A stretch of DNA of 64,000 nucleotides from NCBI GenBank assembly GCA_965219955.1, contig OZ244799.1, forward strand, positions 864,001 through 928,000. The letters run 5' to 3'. How positions within the stretch are numbered: the stretch's first letter is position 1; each line of letters opens with the position of its first letter. The notes under the pieces are model-generated. The model saw only the letters and a list, made by a program, of their open reading frames with translations, had not been told where the DNA came from and ran no database searches. Positions 1,593 to 28,253 of the stretch are shown here, in pieces. This stretch comes from a bacterium. Its GTDB lineage: Bacteria; UBA8248. Position numbers and translations under genes: made by a program.

Positions 1593-2303
1593 TCAGTCCA
1601 GCACCGCCACGGCGCGCACCGGCGAGCCCGTGGCGTCTTTCAGCTTGATGGGCAGGCACAGGAAGGTGAAGCGCTTGCCCACCAGGCGCCTGGGGATCAC
1701 CAGGTTCTCCGTGTTGAGCATCCCCCGCTCCTTGCACACCTGGTGAGAGGGATAGGGCTCTTCCGACTCGGGAAACATCTGCGTGGGGTTTTCTATCGTG
1801 AACGCCTCGCAGCCGATGTTGCGCACCCCCCGATCGGCGAGATACTCGGTGGCGGGCCGGCTCAGGCCTGCGAATTCTTTCCACCATACATCGGGATTCG
1901 GGTCCTTGAACGACTTCTCGAAATGCCCCGTGTAGTACAAGAAAGCGTCACCCTCTTCGATGGAAAGCCCGTGTTTGTCCAGTTCGCGCTCGATGTGTTC
2001 GGTTTCGATGTAGGTCCTGGGCGCGACGTCCGAGAAATCCACGCAAATCGCGCTCGAATAAAAACGCTCCAGCGGCAACTGGTCGATGGAGGGCGCGTCT
2101 CCGGGCACGTAGTGGTTCAGGGCGTCCACGTGGCTTCCGGTGTGATCCGAGAGCGTGAGCTTCATGGCCGCGAAGGAGAATTTCCCGAGAAATCTTTTGG
2201 AAGATTCCTCGTGCGTCATCATCGGCTCGATGGCCACCTTGGGGTGGAACGGACGCTCGAATCCGCCCGCCGCCACGGTTTGTGAGAGGTCGATCAATTC
2301 CAT
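1593..2303 (-). CDS. Cyclase / kynurenine formamidase family protein
   Basis: HTGSHVDALNH signature; C-terminal LPIKLKDATGSPVRAVA. Confidence 0.9.
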   Translation of the reverse strand: MELIDLSQTVAAGGFERPFHPKVAIEPMMTHEESSKRFLGKFSFAAMKLTLSDHTGSHVDALNHYVPGDAPSIDQLPLERFYSSAICVDFSDVAPRTYIETEHIERELDKHGLSIEEGDAFLYYTGHFEKSFKDPNPDVWWKEFAGLSRPATEYLADRGVRNIGCEAFTIENPTQMFPESEEPYPSHQVCKERGMLNTENLVIPRRLVGKRFTFLCLPIKLKDATGSPVRAVAVLD

Positions 2304-2348: not shown

Positions 2349-3935
2349 TCAGGCCATCATGGTCTCGACGGGCGCCCAGAATCGTTCGATTTCCAGGTCT
2401 TCGGCGATCGCGTTCGCGCAGTTGTAACCGGGCGCTCCCGTCACCGCGCCGCCCACGTGCGAACTCGAACCGCACAGGTAGAGCTTGCCGATCGGCGTGC
2501 GGAAGTCGCTCACGTCCGGATGCGGGCGGTTGTAGCCCAACTGCTCGGGAATGTAGGCGCCCACGTGGTGGCTCGCGCGTACGAAGTTCGGGTTCATGCG
2601 CACGATGTCGAGCGGCGTGTAGAGATAGCTGCCCATAATGTTGTCGTGGTTGATGTTGGGCGCATACGGCGTCCAGGAGTCGATGAAGTGCTGGGTGTAC
2701 TCCTCGCGCCGCGCGTCCCACGCCTCGGCGCCTCCGTCTTTGAGTTCAAAGGGCGCAAACGGCCACCAGTAGCCCACGTGCGTGCCGTCCGGCGAGTAGG
2801 TCGGGTCGAAGTGGCTGTTGCTGCCGCCATTGCCCATGAGCTTGGGCAGTTCGCCGTCGTGGATCGTCTCGAAGCACGCGTCGATCTCCTCGGTCGAGTC
2901 CGCGCCCCAGAAGATGTTGAACGTCTTGTTGATGTCGGGCTCGAATTTCGCGGCCGCGAAATCGGGCGCTTCCTTGAGCGCCAGGTGGATGGTGCACAGC
3001 CCGTGGCTCGCCCACTGATACTCGAGAGCCGCCCTGGCGAGCTTGCCGCCGAAGTAATCCTCCCCGGCCAGGCGAACCGTGAGCGGCCAGTTCACCCCGC
3101 TCGCCACGAACTCGGTGGCCTCGATGCGTGTGCCGTCCTCGAGGATGACGCCGGTGGCGTCGCCGCTTTCCACCGTGATCTCGCGGACCTCCGCGTTGGT
3201 GAACACCTTGCCGCCGCCTCGAACGACCACGCGCTCGAGCGCGCGCGTGAAGTTCACCGAACCGCCGACAGGCAGGGCGAAGCTTGCGATGCGCGAGAAT
3301 ATTCTCGGGAAGAAGATGCCCGTCGTGGGCGTGTTCTCGAGAGTGAAGGAACCCAGGAAGAGCTTGAACAGCACCCGCAACCTGTCGTCTTCGAAGTGCT
3401 GGTCCACCGCATCGTACATGCTCAAGTTCGCATAGCTTAAGAACTCACGGCCCAGCGGCCCCGCGAAGCGCTCTTTGAGCTCCTCCGGCGGCAGGGGGGC
3501 GCAGTACATGAAGGAGGTGATGATGTCGAGCATACCTTCTGTGAACTTGACGTGGAGGTCCCGGTAGGTTTTCGCGTCGTTCTTGTTGATGCGCTCGATC
3601 GACTTGACGGTCTTCTCCACGTCGCGGTGGATGACGAACGCCGTGCCGTCGCTGAAGAGGGCACCTTGCTGAAATTCCGGGAAGATGAGGCTGAAGCCGT
3701 ATTCGTGGAGTTCCAGATCGCGCAGGATGGGGCTTCTCTCCAGGCCCACGTAGTAATTCGAGTGCAGGTTGTGCTTGAAGCCCGGCAGTGTGACTTCGTG
3801 CGTGGAGCAGCCCCCGCCGGCGACGTCTGCGCGTTCCAGGACGGCTACTTTTTTCCCGGCCTTCGCCAGATAGGCGGCGCATACCAGGCTGTTATGTCCG
3901 CCGCCGACGAACAATCCATCGTAAGATTCGGTCAT
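2349..3935 (-). CDS. Phytoene desaturase-like FAD-dependent oxidoreductase
   Basis: VGGGHNSL FAD motif; C-terminal RTPIGKLYLCGSSSHVGGAVTGAPGYNCA. Confidence 0.85.
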   Translation of the reverse strand: MTESYDGLFVGGGHNSLVCAAYLAKAGKKVAVLERADVAGGGCSTHEVTLPGFKHNLHSNYYVGLERSPILRDLELHEYGFSLIFPEFQQGALFSDGTAFVIHRDVEKTVKSIERINKNDAKTYRDLHVKFTEGMLDIITSFMYCAPLPPEELKERFAGPLGREFLSYANLSMYDAVDQHFEDDRLRVLFKLFLGSFTLENTPTTGIFFPRIFSRIASFALPVGGSVNFTRALERVVVRGGGKVFTNAEVREITVESGDATGVILEDGTRIEATEFVASGVNWPLTVRLAGEDYFGGKLARAALEYQWASHGLCTIHLALKEAPDFAAAKFEPDINKTFNIFWGADSTEEIDACFETIHDGELPKLMGNGGSNSHFDPTYSPDGTHVGYWWPFAPFELKDGGAEAWDARREEYTQHFIDSWTPYAPNINHDNIMGSYLYTPLDIVRMNPNFVRASHHVGAYIPEQLGYNRPHPDVSDFRTPIGKLYLCGSSSHVGGAVTGAPGYNCANAIAEDLEIERFWAPVETMMA

Positions 3936-4043: not shown

Positions 4044-4436
4044 TCAGGCCTCCGGGATATAGGCCGTGGCGTCGATTTCCACCAGAAAATCCTCTGAAGC
4101 CAGCCCGTCCACGATCACGCCCGTGCTCGCGGGCGCATGAGGGCCGAAGTATTCCGCGATCACCGCGTATACGGGCTTTCGGTACGCCCTGTCGGTAATG
4201 TAGTTCGTGAGCTTCACGACGTGGGAGAGGTCGCCGCCCGCCTCTTCGAGAAGCCGGCGGATGTTCTCGCACGCCTGGCGGGCCTGGGCCGCGGCGTCGC
4301 CGCGCGCGGGAGGTGTGCCGTCGAGCCCCTCTCCGGTCTGGCCCGCGAGATAGAGCGTCCTGCCCGCCAGAAGGCCCTGTGAATAGCTGCCCGCCCCGGC
4401 GGTCACCTGCGTGGTGTGGAATTTTTGGAATGACAT
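4044..4436 (-). CDS. RidA/YjgF family protein
   Basis: YSQG, LYLAGQ, VVKLTNY, PAST, VEIDATA; start moved to MSFQ downstream of a GGAG. Confidence 0.85.
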   Translation of the reverse strand: MSFQKFHTTQVTAGAGSYSQGLLAGRTLYLAGQTGEGLDGTPPARGDAAAQARQACENIRRLLEEAGGDLSHVVKLTNYITDRAYRKPVYAVIAEYFGPHAPASTGVIVDGLASEDFLVEIDATAYIPEA

Positions 4437-4569
4437 GGCGATATCTCCAGAAATCATCGAAGAATTGGAAAAGGTAAGCGATGGCGCTTTTCTGACGCGT
4501 GTATGAGCTTCAGGGCCTGTGCATAAGGAAGTTGCGGTGGAATGCGCACCCACCCGCGCCGCGCGAGCG

Positions 4570-4965
4570 TTACTCCATATCGAACATCGCCGTGGACGCG
4601 ACCTCGATCAGGTTGTTCTCCGGGTCCCGGAAGAAGATTTGGGGATAACCGTAAGGCTCGTCGTGAAACGGGATGTCGTGCGACTTGAGCCTCTCCTTCA
4701 TGCCTGCCAGATCTTCCGTCACCATTCCGAAGTGGTGGTCCATATAGCCGTCTTCGTTGTCGCTGATGGAATGCTTCACGTGCGTGTCGCTCACCTTGGC
4801 GAGGTGAATCTGATGATCCGTACCCGCCTCGTACCAATAGCCGGGGAAGGGGAAGTGGGGCCGGGGCATCTCGGGCAGTCCCATGATTTCGTTATAAAAC
4901 TTGTGCATGGCCGGCAAATCCCGGCAATAGATGCTGAAGTGCTGCAGGAACTTGATCTTGGACAT
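4570..4965 (-). CDS. VOC/glyoxalase family protein
   Basis: LQHFSI...FY...GL, QIHL, HHFG, QIFFRDPENNLIEV; start at MSKIK after GAGGAG. Confidence 0.85.
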   Translation of the reverse strand: MSKIKFLQHFSIYCRDLPAMHKFYNEIMGLPEMPRPHFPFPGYWYEAGTDHQIHLAKVSDTHVKHSISDNEDGYMDHHFGMVTEDLAGMKERLKSHDIPFHDEPYGYPQIFFRDPENNLIEVASTAMFDME

Positions 4966-5109
4966 CGGCGTCTCTCCTCGGATTGTCGAGTTCTTTCTCA
5001 CACTAATAATGCTCTTTTCCCTCTCTGGCAAGGCGCGGCTTCCACTGGAGATACTCAAATCCGCACGTTTGTCGTATCCTGCTGAAAACACCAAACCGGA
5101 GGAATCCTC

Positions 5110-6513
5110 ATGGCGGGTCGTTTCGTGGTCGAAAACGCCTGCGTCCTCACTCAGAACGAGGCGCGTGATGTGCTCCCCCGCGCGTCGGTGCTGGTCGAGG
5201 ATGGCCGGGTCGCCGAGATCTCTGAATCCAGCATAGACGCAGGCGCGGCAGAGGTGATCGACGGCGAGGACATGGCCCTCATGCCGGGGCTGGTAAACGC
5301 CCACAGCCACATCATGTGCATTCTTTTGCGCGGCGGCCTGGGCGCGGATAGGCGGCTCATGGACTGGCGCCTGAACGTCATGGCGCCCGGCCAGGTCGCC
5401 TATACGCCCGGGGATGCGGCGCTCTCCGTCAAGCTCTTCGCGTGCGAAGCGATTCGCTCCGGCACCACGGCGGTGGTGACGAACGAGCGGGTCCCCATCC
5501 CGCTGGCCGAGGCGATGATAGAGGCCATGGACGATTCGGGCATGCGGAGCGTCTTCGCCTTATGCTTCAACGAAATGTCTCCTTCGGGAAAACTCGCCGA
5601 GCGGGCGCACTCCCACATCGCCGCCTGGGGGAAGACCTTTCCGCCGAGTCTCAAGACGAGGGATGAGGTGTTCGAGGAGACTTCCCACCTGGTGGACAAA
5701 TACCACGGTCGCTCCGGTGGCCGGGTTCTCGTCTGGCCGGGGCCGAACATCCCCGTCTACGTGAAGCCCGAGACATTCCGCGAGGTGGACGAATGGGCCG
5801 GCGAGCGCGGCCTTCGCGTCTCCACGCACGTATCGGAAGACCCCATGGAATCAGAAGTGGGCGGCCTTCCCGTGGTGCAGCACCTGGCGGCCTGGGGTCT
5901 GCTCTCGGAGCGTCTCGTCGCCGGCCACTGCATTCACTTGAGCGAGGAGGACATACGCCTCCTCAAGGAATCAGGTACGCAGGCCGTGCATCTGCCCTCT
6001 AGCAATATGTATCTGGGTTCGGGCGTCTCGCCGGTGCCGCGCATGCTGGGCTACGGCATCCCCGTGGCGCTCGGCACGGACAATGCGAACTGCAACGACC
6101 TCGTCAACATGTTCTGGGAGATAAGGCTCGCCTGCCTGCTCCACAAGGGCGTGCAGCAGGACCCCGCAGCCATCACGGCGCAGCAGGTGCTCGACATGGC
6201 CACGCGCAACGGCGCTCGCGCTCTCGGCCTGGAAGAAGAAATCGGGAGCATCGAGGTGGGCAAGCGGGCGGATATGATTCTGCTCGACATGAGCGGCCCC
6301 CACATGCACCCGAATCATCATCTGCCGTCCGTGCTCGCGTACCAGACCCACGGGACGGAAGTGCGCTGGGTCTGGGTGGAAGGCGAGCCGCTCATGGAAG
6401 CGGGACGCCTGAGCAGGATAAGCGAAGATGAGGAACGCGCGATTCGCGGGGAGGCGCAGGCGGCGTCCGCGGCTATCGTCGAGCGAGCGGGCCTGATTGT
6501 CCCCGGGACATGA
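5110..6513 (+). CDS. Amidohydrolase-superfamily deaminase/chlorohydrolase, AtzA/TriA-like
   Basis: PGLVNAHSH, ILLRGG, THVSE, AGHC, SNMYLGSG, GTDNANCND, GSIEVGKRAD; strongly resembles AtzA/TriA as recalled. Confidence 0.85.
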   Translation: MAGRFVVENACVLTQNEARDVLPRASVLVEDGRVAEISESSIDAGAAEVIDGEDMALMPGLVNAHSHIMCILLRGGLGADRRLMDWRLNVMAPGQVAYTPGDAALSVKLFACEAIRSGTTAVVTNERVPIPLAEAMIEAMDDSGMRSVFALCFNEMSPSGKLAERAHSHIAAWGKTFPPSLKTRDEVFEETSHLVDKYHGRSGGRVLVWPGPNIPVYVKPETFREVDEWAGERGLRVSTHVSEDPMESEVGGLPVVQHLAAWGLLSERLVAGHCIHLSEEDIRLLKESGTQAVHLPSSNMYLGSGVSPVPRMLGYGIPVALGTDNANCNDLVNMFWEIRLACLLHKGVQQDPAAITAQQVLDMATRNGARALGLEEEIGSIEVGKRADMILLDMSGPHMHPNHHLPSVLAYQTHGTEVRWVWVEGEPLMEAGRLSRISEDEERAIRGEAQAASAAIVERAGLIVPGT

Positions 6514-6561
6514 AACGGCGTTCGCCCATCGAGCGCCCTTGATGAATAAGGAGACTCAATC

Positions 6562-7668
6562 GTGTTTGATACCCAGGTGGTGAAGTTTCAGATGTCGGGA
6601 CCCGAGGACGTCTCGGGTCTTGCGGAAGCGGTGGCGGAAGGCCGCATTCAGGCGGCGGACATTCAGGCCATCATCGCCAAGACCGAAGGCAACGGCCGGG
6701 TGAACGACTATTCGAGGCCATACGCGCTCCATTCCTTCGAGGATTACATGATGGAGAAGCTGGGCCTCTCCCGCGCCGAGGTGCAGGGCATGTGCGCCAT
6801 GGTGATGTCGGGTGGCTGCGAGGGGATCATGAGCCCCCACGCGGTGGCCATTTCCAAGACGGACGTGGGCGACGCCGAAGGCCCCGGCGAGAAGCGCCTC
6901 TCCATGGGGGTCGCCTTCACCAGGGAGCTTCTGCCCGAGGAGTTGGGCACGATGGCGCAGGTGGACTTGGTGGCCGAGGCGGCGGAGGAGGCGCTCGCAA
7001 AGGCGGGCGTGGATTCGCTGGATGATGTGGGCTACGTGCAGGTGAAGTGCCCGCTTTTGACGTCGGACCGCATCAACGACGCGGCCTCGCGTGGCAAGAA
7101 GGTGGTGAGTACGGACACCACGCGCTCGATGAGCCTGTCGAACGGGTGCTCGGCTCTGGGTGCTGCGGTGGGCATCGGGGAGATCGACAGGGCGTCGTTC
7201 GAGATAACCGACGTGTGCAGCCGGGGCGACCTGTATTCGGAGATGATCTCCTGCTCGGCGGGCGTGGAACTCATGCGTTCGGAAGTCGTCGTCCTGGCGA
7301 ATTCCTCCCAATCGGTGAGCCGCTACAAGATCGGCCGGGCGGTGATGCAGCACCTGATCGACGCCGACGCCGTGAGGCAGGCGCTCAAAAACGCAGGGCT
7401 CGCCTTCGAAGGCCTGCCGGGTGCGGATGATTTGAGCAGGGTTGTGCACGCGTTCGCGAAAGCCGGCGCGCCCTGGGACGGCAGGCTTCTGGGCAAGCGC
7501 GTCACGCTGCTCACGGATTCCGTTCTGGGCACGCGGCCCGTGCGCGCCGTGGCGAACGCCGTAATCGCGTCGGTGGTGCAGGACCCGGCGGTCTACGTCT
7601 CGGCCGGTCTCGTCTTCCACCAGGGTCCCGTGGGCGGAGGGGTGGTTTCCGCCATCATCGAGGCGTAG
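6562..7668 (+). CDS. Ring-opening amidohydrolase, cyanuric acid hydrolase/barbiturase (AtzD) family
   Basis: KTEGNGxVND, MSGGCEG, VQVKCPLLT, SCSAGVE, HQGPVGGG family signatures. Confidence 0.92.
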   Translation: MFDTQVVKFQMSGPEDVSGLAEAVAEGRIQAADIQAIIAKTEGNGRVNDYSRPYALHSFEDYMMEKLGLSRAEVQGMCAMVMSGGCEGIMSPHAVAISKTDVGDAEGPGEKRLSMGVAFTRELLPEELGTMAQVDLVAEAAEEALAKAGVDSLDDVGYVQVKCPLLTSDRINDAASRGKKVVSTDTTRSMSLSNGCSALGAAVGIGEIDRASFEITDVCSRGDLYSEMISCSAGVELMRSEVVVLANSSQSVSRYKIGRAVMQHLIDADAVRQALKNAGLAFEGLPGADDLSRVVHAFAKAGAPWDGRLLGKRVTLLTDSVLGTRPVRAVANAVIASVVQDPAVYVSAGLVFHQGPVGGGVVSAIIEA

Positions 7669-7782
7669 AGACGGAGTGAAGGGCCGAATGGTCAGGGAGA
7701 AGGACGCCTGAAAAATTATGATGATAAGGTGTTGAAATATATGAGGCTGGGGTTTTCCGGCGCAATTGAGGACAAAAAAATC

Positions 7783-7811
7783 TTGACACGATTCCGGGCC
7801 TTTGCTAGGAT
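7783..7811 (+). promoter_or_regulatory. Sigma70 promoter TTGACA-17bp-TAGGAT with extended -10 TG
   Basis: TTGACA 7783-7788, 17-nt spacer, TGcTAGGAT; A-tract just upstream and IHF-like site near 7725-7740. Confidence 0.7.
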
Positions 7812-7850
7812 TTGAGCGTACAAATCGCAAGTAGCAAGAGGAGGGCTGTC

Positions 7851-7946
7851 ATGGTAAGAAACTTGATAGTAACCGCCTACAACACATCTCTCCGGAGGGT
7901 TCTGAAAACGGCTCACCACCGGAAGAGGGTTCTGAAAAAACCCTAA
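7851..7946 (+). CDS. Candidate 31-aa basic peptide MVRNLIVTAYNTSLRRVLKTAHHRKRVLKKP
   Basis: AGGAGG at 7839-7844, 6 nt before the ATG; too short for the ORF track. Confidence 0.4.
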   Translation: MVRNLIVTAYNTSLRRVLKTAHHRKRVLKKP

Positions 7947-7998
7947 ACTGCCCCTTGGTGTTACCTGAAACGGGACATTGAGGGAAATTCAAAAACAG

Positions 7999-8031
7999 CA
8001 GGCGGCGTCGACGGGCGCCGCCTGTTTTTTT
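7999..8031 (+). terminator. Rho-independent terminator
   Basis: caggcggcgtc-gacg-ggcgccgcctg followed by T7. Confidence 0.85.
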
Positions 8032-8096
8032 GCGCGCGTTTTTGGAGGAGGGGCCGGGAGACCCCATCTTCCCCGAAAGCGTCGAAGCCCTCCCTC

Positions 8097-8297
8097 CTCA
8101 CCCTGAGTTGCGGCGGAGCCGCGTATCGAAGGTCAAACGCGATTGATGAATGAGCGTTTGCGTATTGATTTTTCCTCACCCGCAATCGCTCCTGATGCGC
8201 CCCGGCGAACCCTCCTTCATCGGTCGGGTTCGTGCCCTTGATACGGCCCTTCGGGCCTACTCGGGATGAAGAGGTTTGGCGAAGCCGCGTATCGAAG
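8097..8297. repeat. Intergenic repeat mosaic (CTCACCCTGAG...GTATCGAAGG doublet plus TCAAACGCGATTGATGA-type ends)
   Basis: Same motifs recur at 10557-10610, 19635-19748, 23635-23782, 37230-37430. Confidence 0.75.
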
Positions 8298-26981: not shown

Positions 26982-28253
26982 ATGAAGCGCGTGATCGTTC
27001 CACCGGACTGCCCGGCCTCCCCGAAAGCGCAGTCAGAGGCCATCGAGACCGAACACCTGCTGTTCTTCGCCGGACAGATGGCGACGGACTACGCCACCGG
27101 CGTCGCCCCCGAGGCGGCCGTGGACCCCGACAACCCGTTCGGCGGCCCGCCGCCGATGGCGCGGCAGACCCACGTCATCCTCCGGCGGATGGGGAAAATC
27201 CTCGAATCAGCGGGCCTCGGTTTCGAGGACGTGATCCGCATCGAGCAGTTCATCACCGGCCGCGAGGAGGCCGCGTGGTATTCCGCGACGAGGCAGGCCT
27301 ACATGTCCCAGGCGCACCCGACCAGCACGCGGGTGGTGGCGCAGGCGCTGGAGGTGCCCGGTGCGCTCATCGTGTGCGACGGCTTCGCGCTCAAGCCCGG
27401 TTCGGGATGGGAGAAGCGGACGCACGACCTCGAACTCGTGCCCAAATCCCTCACGGGCTACCCGGCGGCGCAGTCCGCAGGCCCTTTCGTGCTCATGCCG
27501 GGCATGATCGCCACCGACTACGCGACCGGGATTCACCCCGACGCCCGCGTCGACCCGACTTTCTGGCACCAGTCCGCCATCAAGCGCCAGACCGAGTACA
27601 TCCTCCGCACCAAGCGGAAAGTCCTGAACGAGCTGGACCTCGACTTGAGCGATATCGTCCAGACTTCCGTCTACCTCACCCACATGGAGGACCTCCCGGC
27701 GGTGGACCTCGTGTGGCGCGAGTTCTTCGGCGACGCTCCGCCCGCGCGCAGCGTCATCCCCTGCGACGATCTGGCCATCGGCGGCGCGCGCATCGAGGTC
27801 AGCTCCATCTCCCTGCGCCCGGACGGCGGGCTTGCGCGCCAAACGATTCACTCGCCCGACGCCCCGCCATCCCCCTTCCATGAGCCGCACGCCGTCAAGA
27901 CGGGGCCGTATCTCTGGCTTTCGACGCAGATCGCAGCAGATGAAAACGGCCTCGCGCCCGAGGTTCGCGTGAACCCGGGCCTCCCCTGGCATTCCTCGCC
28001 CGTCAAGCGCCAGACCGAATACATTCTTAAGAACGCCGACGCCATCTGCCGCGCGGCGGGCGGGAGCCTCGCCGACGTCGTGAGAAGCCAGACCGTGTTC
28101 TGCGACATGAACGATCTGCACGGCGCGTTCGAAGTCTGGGGCGGCGCATTCACCGACGCGCCGCCGGTGAACATGAGCGCGCAGACCACCACCCCCATGC
28201 CCGTGCCCGGATGCCGTATCCTGGCGTCGCTCGTGGCCTACATCCCGGATTGA
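26982..28253 (+). CDS. Protein with three tandem RidA/YjgF domains
   Basis: Three internal repeats (ATDYATG / ATDYATG / AADENG; RQTxxIL three times); second repeat has PPARS. Confidence 0.8.
   Translation: MKRVIVPPDCPASPKAQSEAIETEHLLFFAGQMATDYATGVAPEAAVDPDNPFGGPPPMARQTHVILRRMGKILESAGLGFEDVIRIEQFITGREEAAWYSATRQAYMSQAHPTSTRVVAQALEVPGALIVCDGFALKPGSGWEKRTHDLELVPKSLTGYPAAQSAGPFVLMPGMIATDYATGIHPDARVDPTFWHQSAIKRQTEYILRTKRKVLNELDLDLSDIVQTSVYLTHMEDLPAVDLVWREFFGDAPPARSVIPCDDLAIGGARIEVSSISLRPDGGLARQTIHSPDAPPSPFHEPHAVKTGPYLWLSTQIAADENGLAPEVRVNPGLPWHSSPVKRQTEYILKNADAICRAAGGSLADVVRSQTVFCDMNDLHGAFEVWGGAFTDAPPVNMSAQTTTPMPVPGCRILASLVAYIPD

Follow-up and report, generated by a model that had tools for sequence, protein, structure and literature searches.

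A conserved chromosomal pair of an AtzA/TriA-clade amidohydrolase gene and an atypical AtzD/barbiturase-family gene, a possible N-heterocycle catabolic unit in sponge-associated bacteria

Introduction

Cyanuric acid amidohydrolases (CAHs; EC 3.5.2.15), which hydrolyze cyanuric acid to carboxybiuret, and AtzA/TriA, an atrazine chlorohydrolase and a melamine deaminase, are textbook enzymes recruited for man-made triazines, and the natural roles of their relatives are largely unknown. In the lower melamine pathway, TriA/TrzA, guanine deaminase, and TrzC/AtzC are followed by TrzD/AtzD. What, then, is the substrate when a relative of each occurs in a fixed chromosomal pairing, as in a sponge-associated marine lineage that has yet to be cultured, and the ring opener carries a precise, conserved change at one of its three substrate-binding sites? 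The question is raised by genes A and B in a 64,000-nucleotide stretch (hereafter the window; positions 864001 to 928000 of contig OZ244799.1, GenBank assembly GCA_965219955.1, or G000:C1:864001-928000 in our numbering) of a single-contig, 4.28-Mb bacterial genome. An initial annotation of the window had proposed that these genes provide a chromosomal deamination-then-ring-opening route for an N-heterocycle. We put at about an even chance a reading in which A deaminates, and B then opens, an asymmetric amino-oxo triazine or pyrimidine ring. It is drawn from the paired inheritance of the two genes, from a gene B with two of three carbonyl sites intact, and from the presence of a standard CAH gene elsewhere in the genome.

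Results and Discussion

Anatomy of the gene pair

The features of the pair are as follows.

5110-6513, plus strand: gene A, an amidohydrolase of 467 amino acids (aa) with an ATG start
6562-7668, plus strand: gene B, a cyclic amide hydrolase of the AtzD/barbiturase (Toblerone-fold) family, 368 aa with a GTG start
6514-6561, plus strand: A/B spacer of 48 bp, which carries the gene B ribosome-binding site
5099-5104, plus strand: gene A ribosome-binding site GGAGGA, just 5' of the start
6549-6554, plus strand: gene B ribosome-binding site AAGGAG, just 5' of the start

The two open reading frames (ORFs) are co-oriented and 48 bp apart, as first annotated, and both look coding given their third-position GC contents (0.82 in gene A and 0.86 in gene B, in a window of ~63% GC). 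A search for a terminator-like site in the 6514-6561 spacer found none, the first strong one lying at 7997-8026. Genes A and B probably make up a two-gene catabolic unit in one operon.

Gene B lacks two of three CAH-defining features

Gene B matches the Pfam family Amido_AtzD_TrzD (PF09663; E = 2.6e-121, 405.5 bits), in line with its first assignment, and scores 388.4 on TIGR02714 (cut-off, 153.1). Among solved structures it is closest to the Moorella CAH (337 bits), followed by TrzD (322), AtzD (268), and barbiturase (254), with 47-49% identity to the Moorella and TrzD structures. An AlphaFold model built from 49 sequences (pLDDT, 91.8) has TM scores of 0.94 to the Moorella CAH (6bum), 0.94 to 4bvq, and 0.92 to 5hwe; by this model, gene B encodes a Toblerone-fold hydrolase with the three-domain fold. 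The Ser-Lys dyads S83/K40, S232/K162, and S347/K300 are kept, as are Arg52, Glu236, and Arg328, and S232, K162, E236, and R52 are invariant in the alignment. The catalytic set given for the family in PMC4051656 is Ser226/Lys156 with Glu230 and Arg52 (Azorhizobium numbering).

PMC9118981 distinguishes CAHs from barbiturases by Arg194, Arg324 (AtzD numbering), and the motif S-G-G-X-E-X-Q-G-P-X-G-G-G-P. Gene B has an arginine, Arg328, at the AtzD 324 position (Moorella Arg328, site A). Its residue 194 is an asparagine where CAHs carry arginine, and its C-terminal loop, S347-A-G-L-V-F-H-Q-G-P-V-G-G-G-V, departs from the motif by a Gly348-to-Ala change, one inserted residue, the loss of the glutamate, and a final Pro-to-Val change. 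As judged from sequence, gene B fails two of the three published CAH-defining features. In addition, Cys86 and Cys231 replace CAH threonines. All eight aligned sequences of the B clade (B and seven orthologues) share LSN194GCSALG, MSGGC86EG, SC231SAG, and SAGLVFHQGPVGGGV. In the same alignment, AtzD, a TrzD-like protein, a Rhizobium CAH, and a paralogue from the same genome carry YSRGASALG and SGG-AEHQGP. Thus compared, the CAHs (AtzD 4bvq, TrzD 5t13, Moorella 6bum, and Azorhizobium 4nq3) resemble B in fold, in the three Ser-Lys dyads, and in Arg52 and Arg328, but differ from it at residue 194, at Cys86/Cys231, and in having SGGxExQGPxGGGP for the B loop. They also differ in gene context, B being paired with a deaminase gene and CAH genes with biuret hydrolase or atzG/E/H.

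According to PMC6557486, the three carbonyls of the three-fold symmetric substrate are each bound in the Moorella CAH by an arginine and a backbone NH, and one of these arginines, Arg193, forms carbonyl site C and is hydrogen-bonded to the loop residue Glu351. Among the 120 homologues nearest to B in a set of 5.8 billion proteins, 104 have Asn and 16 have Arg at position 194, and in those 104 the arginine and its partner glutamate are lost together, consistently. Since the Arg/Glu of site C has turned into Asn194 and a Leu-Val-Phe loop, the B substrate most likely carries H, alkyl, or NH2, rather than a carbonyl oxygen, as its third ring substituent. Such a substrate would be neither cyanuric acid nor, probably, barbituric acid.

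The barbiturase (EC 3.5.2.1) of Rhodococcus erythropolis (5hwe) resembles B in having Asn at the AtzD Arg194 position, a Cys before the nucleophilic Ser, and a nonacidic loop. Its motifs are LSNGGTALG, WSGGTDG, SCSSGVE, and SVSA-AHQGP, with Lys at the 324 position. It differs from B in this Lys for Arg328, in Asp for Glu87, in the loop itself, and in lying on the other side of the family tree. Of the barbiturase residue set, B shares only Asn194 and Cys231 and otherwise has Arg328, MSGGCEG, and SAGLVFHQGP. PMC4051656 gives glutamine as the barbiturase-subgroup residue at the AtzD Arg194 position; contrary to this, our alignments have Asn there in 5hwe and in every one of 30 actinobacterial homologues.

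The pair is inherited as a unit across three genera

We analyzed the 42 genomes (9 genera) of the GTDB family to which the window belongs, calling gene A at an E value of <=1e-100. Gene A was present in 24 genomes from 3 genera: the window's own, 20 of the 22 others in its genus, both genomes of g8, and 1 of 5 in g2. In each of the 24, gene A is followed in the same orientation by an orthologue of B with 76-100% identity. The pairing is conserved in relatives, contrary to the refuting case that the initial annotation had named. The gap between the matched segments of A and B is 50-132 bp in 23 genomes and 1,097 bp in G019, in which a 282-aa methyltransferase-like ORF is inserted. A is likewise followed by B on all four metagenome contigs of the B clade. 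A profile scan of genome contigs, based on the A-family alignment, yielded only 29-42% identical paralogues of A, and no B homologue was found at any of their 78 loci.

A few genomes depart from the pattern. In G009 (99% complete), gene A is gone and B is a stop-riddled remnant between retained flanking genes. In G024 (87% complete), a 5.3-kb contig carries a B orthologue but no A in the 650 bp upstream of it, and G017 (79% complete) has neither gene. G029 carries an extra copy of A without B, adjoining transposase fragments. In this genome (G029:C1:790000-825900; loci L107 and L108), a cupin gene and A are duplicated ~19 kb from the cupin-A-B copy, and the extra copy adjoins DDE transposase fragments and genes for an M20 peptidase, an amidase, and a peptide-type solute-binding protein.

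Because the 24 genomes with A and B are related to one another, their number carries no statistical weight; what is telling is that the two genes remain neighbors in three genera although their flanks change completely. The conserved unit is A-B and nothing else, and it is chromosomal and vertically inherited, not carried on a plasmid or transposon. No ORF among the 53 of the window that were scanned against Pfam matched a transposase family, which agrees with the first description of the locus, and the remaining window is core chromosome (genes for Obg, ProB, enolase, and transketolase).

The following features lie upstream of gene A.

4966-5109: divergent intergenic region between the VOC gene (minus strand) and gene A (plus strand)
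4983-5010, plus strand: promoter-like site, by consensus match alone (9/12)
4570-4965, minus strand: VOC/glyoxalase gene, the ORF being trimmed to a start supported by relatives
within 4044-4553, minus strand: Rid gene
2349-3935, minus strand: gene for a flavin adenine dinucleotide (FAD) amine-oxidase/phytoene-desaturase-like protein
1593-2303, minus strand: cyclase gene

These VOC, Rid, FAD-oxidoreductase, and cyclase genes are divergent from gene A, as had been described. Within the window's genus the entire neighborhood is syntenic. We rejected the four genes as pathway partners and as members of the unit: their synteny with the pair is confined to the genus, they are absent beside the pair in the genomes from the other genera (G023, G029, and G033), and G009 has kept them at 84-95% identity after losing A and B. 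The cupin and PepA genes are likewise not near the pair in those three genomes, and G009 keeps both. A cupin of 134-165 aa is encoded directly 5' of A in five loci outside the genus (L106/L116, L107, L108, and L117), with a remnant in L109. The window's genus is without it and has a 24-26% identical cupin gene on the opposite strand, which is retained in G009. A cupin is at most a possible fixed third partner of A-B.

Gene A belongs to a clade of its own within the AtzA/TriA group

Gene A matches Pfam Amidohydro_1 (E = 2.9e-56), and its best solved relative is AtzA (4v1x; E = 5e-95, 322 bits), as the initial assignment would have it, followed by a methylthioadenosine/S-adenosylhomocysteine (MTA/SAH) deaminase at 199 bits. 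It scores below all NCBIfam equivalog cut-offs, the best being PRK07228 (304; cut-off, 522), with guanine deaminase at 139.6 (cut-off, 375). Identity is 36.5% to pADP-1 AtzA and 36.8% to a protein encoded on a Klebsiella plasmid; we identify the latter as TriA because it differs from AtzA at 8 of 9 known TriA positions. (The nine AtzA/TriA difference positions, the pocket list, and the metal and catalytic roles used here are those in PMC4356373.) Thirteen clusters are 66-93% identical to A (one by a partial match), and the next homologues are <=42% identical. Proteins 67-89% identical to A are labeled at NCBI as coming from "Nitrospinota/Nitrospinae bacterium" metagenome-assembled genomes (MAGs).

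We built a tree by a quick search from 73 rows (A, AtzA, TriA, and chosen top homologues, each of >=400 aa), a sampling biased to relatives of A. The 13 rows of the A clade (support, 100; stem, 0.66) fall with AtzA/TriA inside a 62-row clade (Shimodaira-Hasegawa approximate likelihood ratio test [SH-aLRT], 99), and 11 rows, including a named 5'-deoxyadenosine deaminase, form a separate clade. AtzA/TriA fall in a different, 22-row subclade (SH-aLRT, 100) with other metagenomic proteins, so A is not their orthologue. By equivalog cut-offs and clade, A is not an MTA/SAH, 5'-deoxyadenosine, or guanine deaminase, as far as sequence can tell; the check on whether it is such a generic enzyme came out negative.

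The metal and catalytic residues H65, H67, H240, E243, H273, and D324 are all conserved in A. They are equivalent to His66/68/243/276, Asp327, and Glu246 of AtzA/TriA, with which A shares the amidohydrolase fold and a mononuclear metal site of amidohydrolase subtype III. At the specificity positions 84/328/331, A has a mixed set, Leu83/Asn325/Cys328 (Leu/Asp/Cys in TriA and Phe/Asn/Ser in AtzA); the nearest natural relatives of AtzA/TriA have Leu/Asp/Cys. A resembles TriA in having Leu, Ile, and Cys at positions 84, 217, and 331 and differs from it in Asn, not Asp, at 328. Its pocket also has residues invariant in the A clade: Cys70, Met84, Arg87, Met91, and Asn213, in place of AtzA Gln71, Tyr85, Leu88, Val92, and Ala216. 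Given the retained metal ligands and Glu246 equivalent and these invariant residues of its own, the A product is very probably an active hydrolytic deaminase with its own pocket. It tells little of the origin of AtzA/TriA, which the initial annotation had called poorly understood, because it is only 36.5% identical to AtzA and is neither its sister group nor its nearest natural relative.

Asn194 of the B clade probably arose within the CAH side of the family

The B family is small, with 1,180 representatives at E values of <=0.001 in a set of 1.84 billion and 149 at <=1e-30. Of the 120 nearest homologues, 13 form the B clade (75-97% identical, with the loop residues LVF), which collapses to one representative in the 1.84 billion set, and ~90 are 48-55% identical to B and carry the loop SAGWGYHQGP. 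A few of these latter relatives are named as Burkholderiales, Casimicrobiaceae, or Betaproteobacteria MAGs, and others are on soil or marine contigs. The best 150 include 79 full-length proteins; at the three arginine positions, 42 of these have Arg/Arg/Arg, 5 have Arg/Asn/Arg, and 4 have Arg/Asn/Lys.

We placed B in a tree of 51 hand-picked rows (7 of the B clade, 20 with the SAGWGYHQGP loop, 14 Arg type, and 10 barbiturase type), made by a quick search with SH-aLRT support only and midpoint rooted. The B clade (SH-aLRT, 100) lies inside a 27-row Asn194 clade (99), which is nested among Arg-type sequences. The barbiturase clade stands apart from it on a branch of 1.78 changes per column (SH-aLRT, 100). 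Under midpoint rooting, the Arg-to-Asn change in these sequences arose twice, and the Asn shared with barbiturase is convergent, since B branches among the hydrolases of the CAH side and not with barbiturase. Barbiturase-type genes are common in Actinomycetes: 82 of 351 sampled genomes match TIGR02714, mostly with 525-614 bits (the tally takes in three unpublished genomes, whose sequences were not used), and all 30 of the actinobacterial loci that were read (L186-L215) have the full barbiturase residue set with Asn.

The SAGWGYHQGP relatives are like B in the Arg/Asn/Arg pattern, Cys86, the one-residue loop insertion, and the joint clade; they are unlike B in having Trp-Gly-Tyr for Leu-Val-Phe and neighbors other than A. 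We surveyed 16 of their metagenome loci by crude longest-ORF calls, after dropping L128 and L129 as near-copies of L126 and L131. An AtzH-like gene was present in 7 and an amidase gene in 7; two of the amidases, scored against NCBIfam, belong to the AtzE family (676 and 687; cut-off, 461). Four loci have an amidohydrolase scoring 395-402 on the 8-oxoguanine deaminase model (cut-off, 532), and L131 and L133, apparently one shared arrangement, have a xanthine-dehydrogenase-family enzyme. Clustering of this clade with AtzH-like, AtzE-family amidase, and 8-oxoguanine-deaminase-like genes was seen in L120, L124, L125, L137, L138, L145, L151, and L156, and these clusters also hold a helix-turn-helix-cupin regulator and transporters. 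In Pseudomonas ADP, AtzE and AtzH act on the product of CAH, and atzG-E-H clusters are rarely associated with atzD homologues (PMC6219798).

The genome also has a canonical CAH paralogue (G000:C1:1778770-1779852; locus L104:9256-10359), with 521.8 bits on the NCBIfam CAH equivalog model NF052395, 44% identity to B, the Arg/Arg/Arg pattern, and SGG-AEHQGP. A carbamate kinase gene lies before it, and two DDE transposase genes and a BMP-type ABC transporter lie after it. Such a paralogue is present in 15 of the 24 genomes with A and B, which argues that B is not redundant with CAH; similar paralogues are spread through the class. PDB entry 5hy0 is listed as "Ring-opening amidohydrolase" in the sequence table, but the fold library gives it the title "orotic acid hydrolase," a hint of a third substrate class in the B family. 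Our literature search turned up nothing published on either the Asn194 clade or the A clade, although existing papers may already name them.

Proposed route and its alternatives

In the reading that we prefer, A, a mononuclear-metal amidohydrolase of the kind that deaminates triazines, would hydrolytically strip an exocyclic amino group from an amino-oxo six-membered N-heterocycle, either an s-triazine or a pyrimidine, and so leave a cyclic amide or ureide whose ring carries two carbonyls. B would then open the ring through attack by Ser232, activated by Lys162, with the two carbonyls in the oxyanion holes that it keeps (Arg52 with the Gly84 backbone and Arg328 with the residue 348 backbone). 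The third CAH hole (Moorella Arg193/Glu351) would be replaced by Asn194 and the hydrophobic Leu-Val-Phe loop. The analysis shows the anatomy of the genes, their family and fold, the states of their residues, and the conserved pairing; the deaminase chemistry of A, the order of the steps, and the nature of the substrate are what we infer here. Candidate substrates are ammeline/ammelide-like, 5-azacytosine/5-azauracil-like, or aminopyrimidine-dione compounds. Hydrolytic ring deamination followed by Toblerone-fold hydrolytic ring opening is also the logic of the lower melamine pathway, whose genes are scattered or on plasmids with insertion sequences (the Klebsiella TriA gene is next to such sequences), unlike the fixed chromosomal pair A-B. 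Particular to this locus are the fixed association of B with a deaminase of the AtzA/TriA clade and a cleanly remodeled site C. The heterocycle-pathway idea of the initial annotation therefore stands in part: the clade placement of A, the pairing, and the atypical B support it, and neither a place for the neighboring genes in the unit nor a bearing on AtzA/TriA origin is supported. An unusual heterocycle gains in plausibility because B is without Arg194 and the SGGxExQGP motif while a canonical CAH gene lies elsewhere in the genome.

Several points weigh against the proposed route. On NF052395, gene B scores 398.7, above the cut-off of 360, and its overall similarity to proven CAHs (337 bits) exceeds that to barbiturase (254 bits). 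The function given to site C in B is carried over from the published Moorella structure rather than read from B with a bound ligand. Genes for later pathway steps were not found beside the pair in this genome, and we found in the literature no assayed enzyme of the Asn194 clade or the A clade. In addition, the product of the SAGWGYHQGP clade may be carboxybiuret-like, and its substrate close to cyanuric acid, by analogy with Pseudomonas ADP, since the neighboring AtzH-like and AtzE-family genes resemble those that process the CAH product there. A whole-genome search found no AtzH-like gene. One allophanate-hydrolase-like match (C1:712275-713528; 600 bits, with stops inside the match) and one protein 35% identical to Rhizobium BiuH are present, neither linked to the pair. 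The SAGWGYHQGP relatives also exceed the NF052395 cut-off (418-424), and the model does not separate the Asn194 clade from CAHs. It thus names proteins that fail published active-site criteria, which matters for counts of "cyanuric acid degraders" in metagenomes.

The main rival is an ordinary lower melamine/s-triazine route in which A is an ammelide or ammeline deaminase and B a working, variant CAH despite Asn194. Its strongest evidence comes from the SAGWGYHQGP relatives, whose AtzH-like, amidase, and 8-oxoguanine-deaminase-like neighbors echo atzD-G-E-H, and it gains from the NF052395 score, from the nesting of B among Arg-type CAH sequences, and from the TriA-like residues of A at 84, 217, and 331. 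We nonetheless consider it unlikely, in view of the two CAH-defining features that B fails, the joint loss of Arg193 and Glu351 in most of its nearest homologues, and the canonical CAH that coexists with the pair in 15 genomes. CAHs, moreover, are reported in PMC9118981 to react, among several dozen compounds, with cyanuric acid alone, by way of a three-fold Arg-Lys-Ser site. Quite improbable, in our estimate, is a barbiturate-type route, with A turning an aminopyrimidine (e.g., 6-aminouracil or 2-amino-4,6-dihydroxypyrimidine) into barbituric acid for B as a convergent barbiturase. Asn194, Cys231, and the loss of the loop glutamate are common to B, 5hwe, and all 30 actinobacterial barbiturase-type genes, and the xanthine-dehydrogenase-family enzyme of L131 and L133 is of the kind that makes barbiturate from uracil. 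B nevertheless has Arg328 for the barbiturase Lys and SAGLVFHQGP for SVSAAHQGP, the branch between B and the barbiturases is long, and a uracil-dehydrogenase-like gene is absent near the pair.

The remaining alternatives change the ring or uncouple the genes. A could turn a cyclic guanidine (creatinine or a sponge 2-aminoimidazolone) into a hydantoin that B opens without ATP. In two other genera the pair is near creatininase-family, creatinase-like M24 peptidase, and hydantoinase B genes, and the sequencing runs in which this stretch occurs come from sponge and marine metagenomes. These neighbors, however, score far under the creatininase (102.7; cut-off, 235) and ectoine-hydrolase/PepQ cut-offs and are not conserved with the pair, and to our knowledge all characterized Toblerone-fold members act on six-membered rings. 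We regard this five-membered-ring route, in which the bulky Leu-Val-Phe loop would fill the smaller pocket, as very unlikely. The least credence goes to the idea that A works in nucleoside or purine salvage and B functions independently of it, with adjacency simply inherited within one family. The pair is indeed confined to a single family of nonindependent genomes, the short G024 contig has B with no A in the 650 bp upstream, and G029 has a second A without B. On the other side are the adjacency kept across three genera with wholly different flanks, the joint decay of A and B in G009 between flanks that stayed, and the position of A under every nucleoside and guanine deaminase cut-off.

We suggest more tentatively, and somewhat short of an even chance, that B and its Asn194 relatives form a third functional class of ring-opening hydrolases of the Toblerone fold, one whose natural substrate is something other than cyanuric or barbituric acid. 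A-B would then be a module of long standing, passed on vertically in sponge-associated bacteria and acting on a natural amino-triazine or amino-pyrimidine. If this is true, it would be the first natural, nonxenobiotic setting of an AtzA/TriA-deaminase relative feeding an AtzD relative. A and B are two small, soluble, easily expressed proteins and, with the short list of candidate substrates, offer a way to look for a natural triazine or pyrimidine catabolic step.

Other features of the window

The pair was also found in environmental data. One contig, from a sponge metagenome, spans 4400-8139 with 23 differences, and another, from a marine metagenome, spans 4638-8139 with 54. Sponge metatranscriptome contigs (90-95% identical; depth, 3-10) lie on 5012-5165, 5532-5735, 6481-6710 (the A/B junction), and 7578-7749. 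They are weak evidence for the unit and show presence in an RNA library rather than a transcript. Such contigs cannot show strand, transcript ends, or expression level, and the uncovered parts of A and B prove nothing.

Features of the spacer after gene B, and one gene farther downstream, are as follows.

7783-8040, plus strand: candidate small RNA of ~200 nt, in the 636-bp spacer after gene B
7783-7811, plus strand: promoter-like site TTGACA-17-TAGGAT
7997-8026, plus strand: 13-bp GC-rich hairpin with a T-run (terminator-like)
26982-28253, plus strand: gene for a 423-aa protein with three Rid/YjgF domains (PF01042, three stretches)

The candidate small RNA is covered by metatranscriptome contigs from sponge (7846-8036; depth, 940) and marine (7838-8006; depth, 83, with no differences) samples, the depth over genes A and B in the same runs being 0-10. 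Its fold z-score is -4.7, and an Rfam search found no family at the gathering score, the weak matches covering only the terminator. Across the genus, conservation of the region is 72-99%, and G009, in which A and B are lost, has kept it too. Farther on, multicopy short repeats lie at 8096-8132 and 8235-8269, with word depths of ~2,990 and ~1,370 against ~21 and ~12 in the flanks and with many loose ends and back-joints in the DNA runs. They are probably a dispersed element of the community, of a repetitive extragenic palindromic (REP)- or miniature inverted-repeat transposable element (MITE)-like kind.

The triple-Rid gene is followed by genes for an M20 peptidase and an NMT1-type ABC transporter, and 86 clusters of similar length occur among 5.8 billion proteins. 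A profile comparison of the triple-Rid protein with the B hydrolase family found no relation (probability, 0.5%), and the best full-length fold matches of its model (pLDDT, 93.3) are chorismatases (TM scores, 0.49-0.64), not AtzD. The Toblerone fold is proposed in PMC3758960 to have arisen by the joining of YjgF monomers, and a triple-Rid protein is a curious thing to find in a genome with two Toblerone-fold genes.

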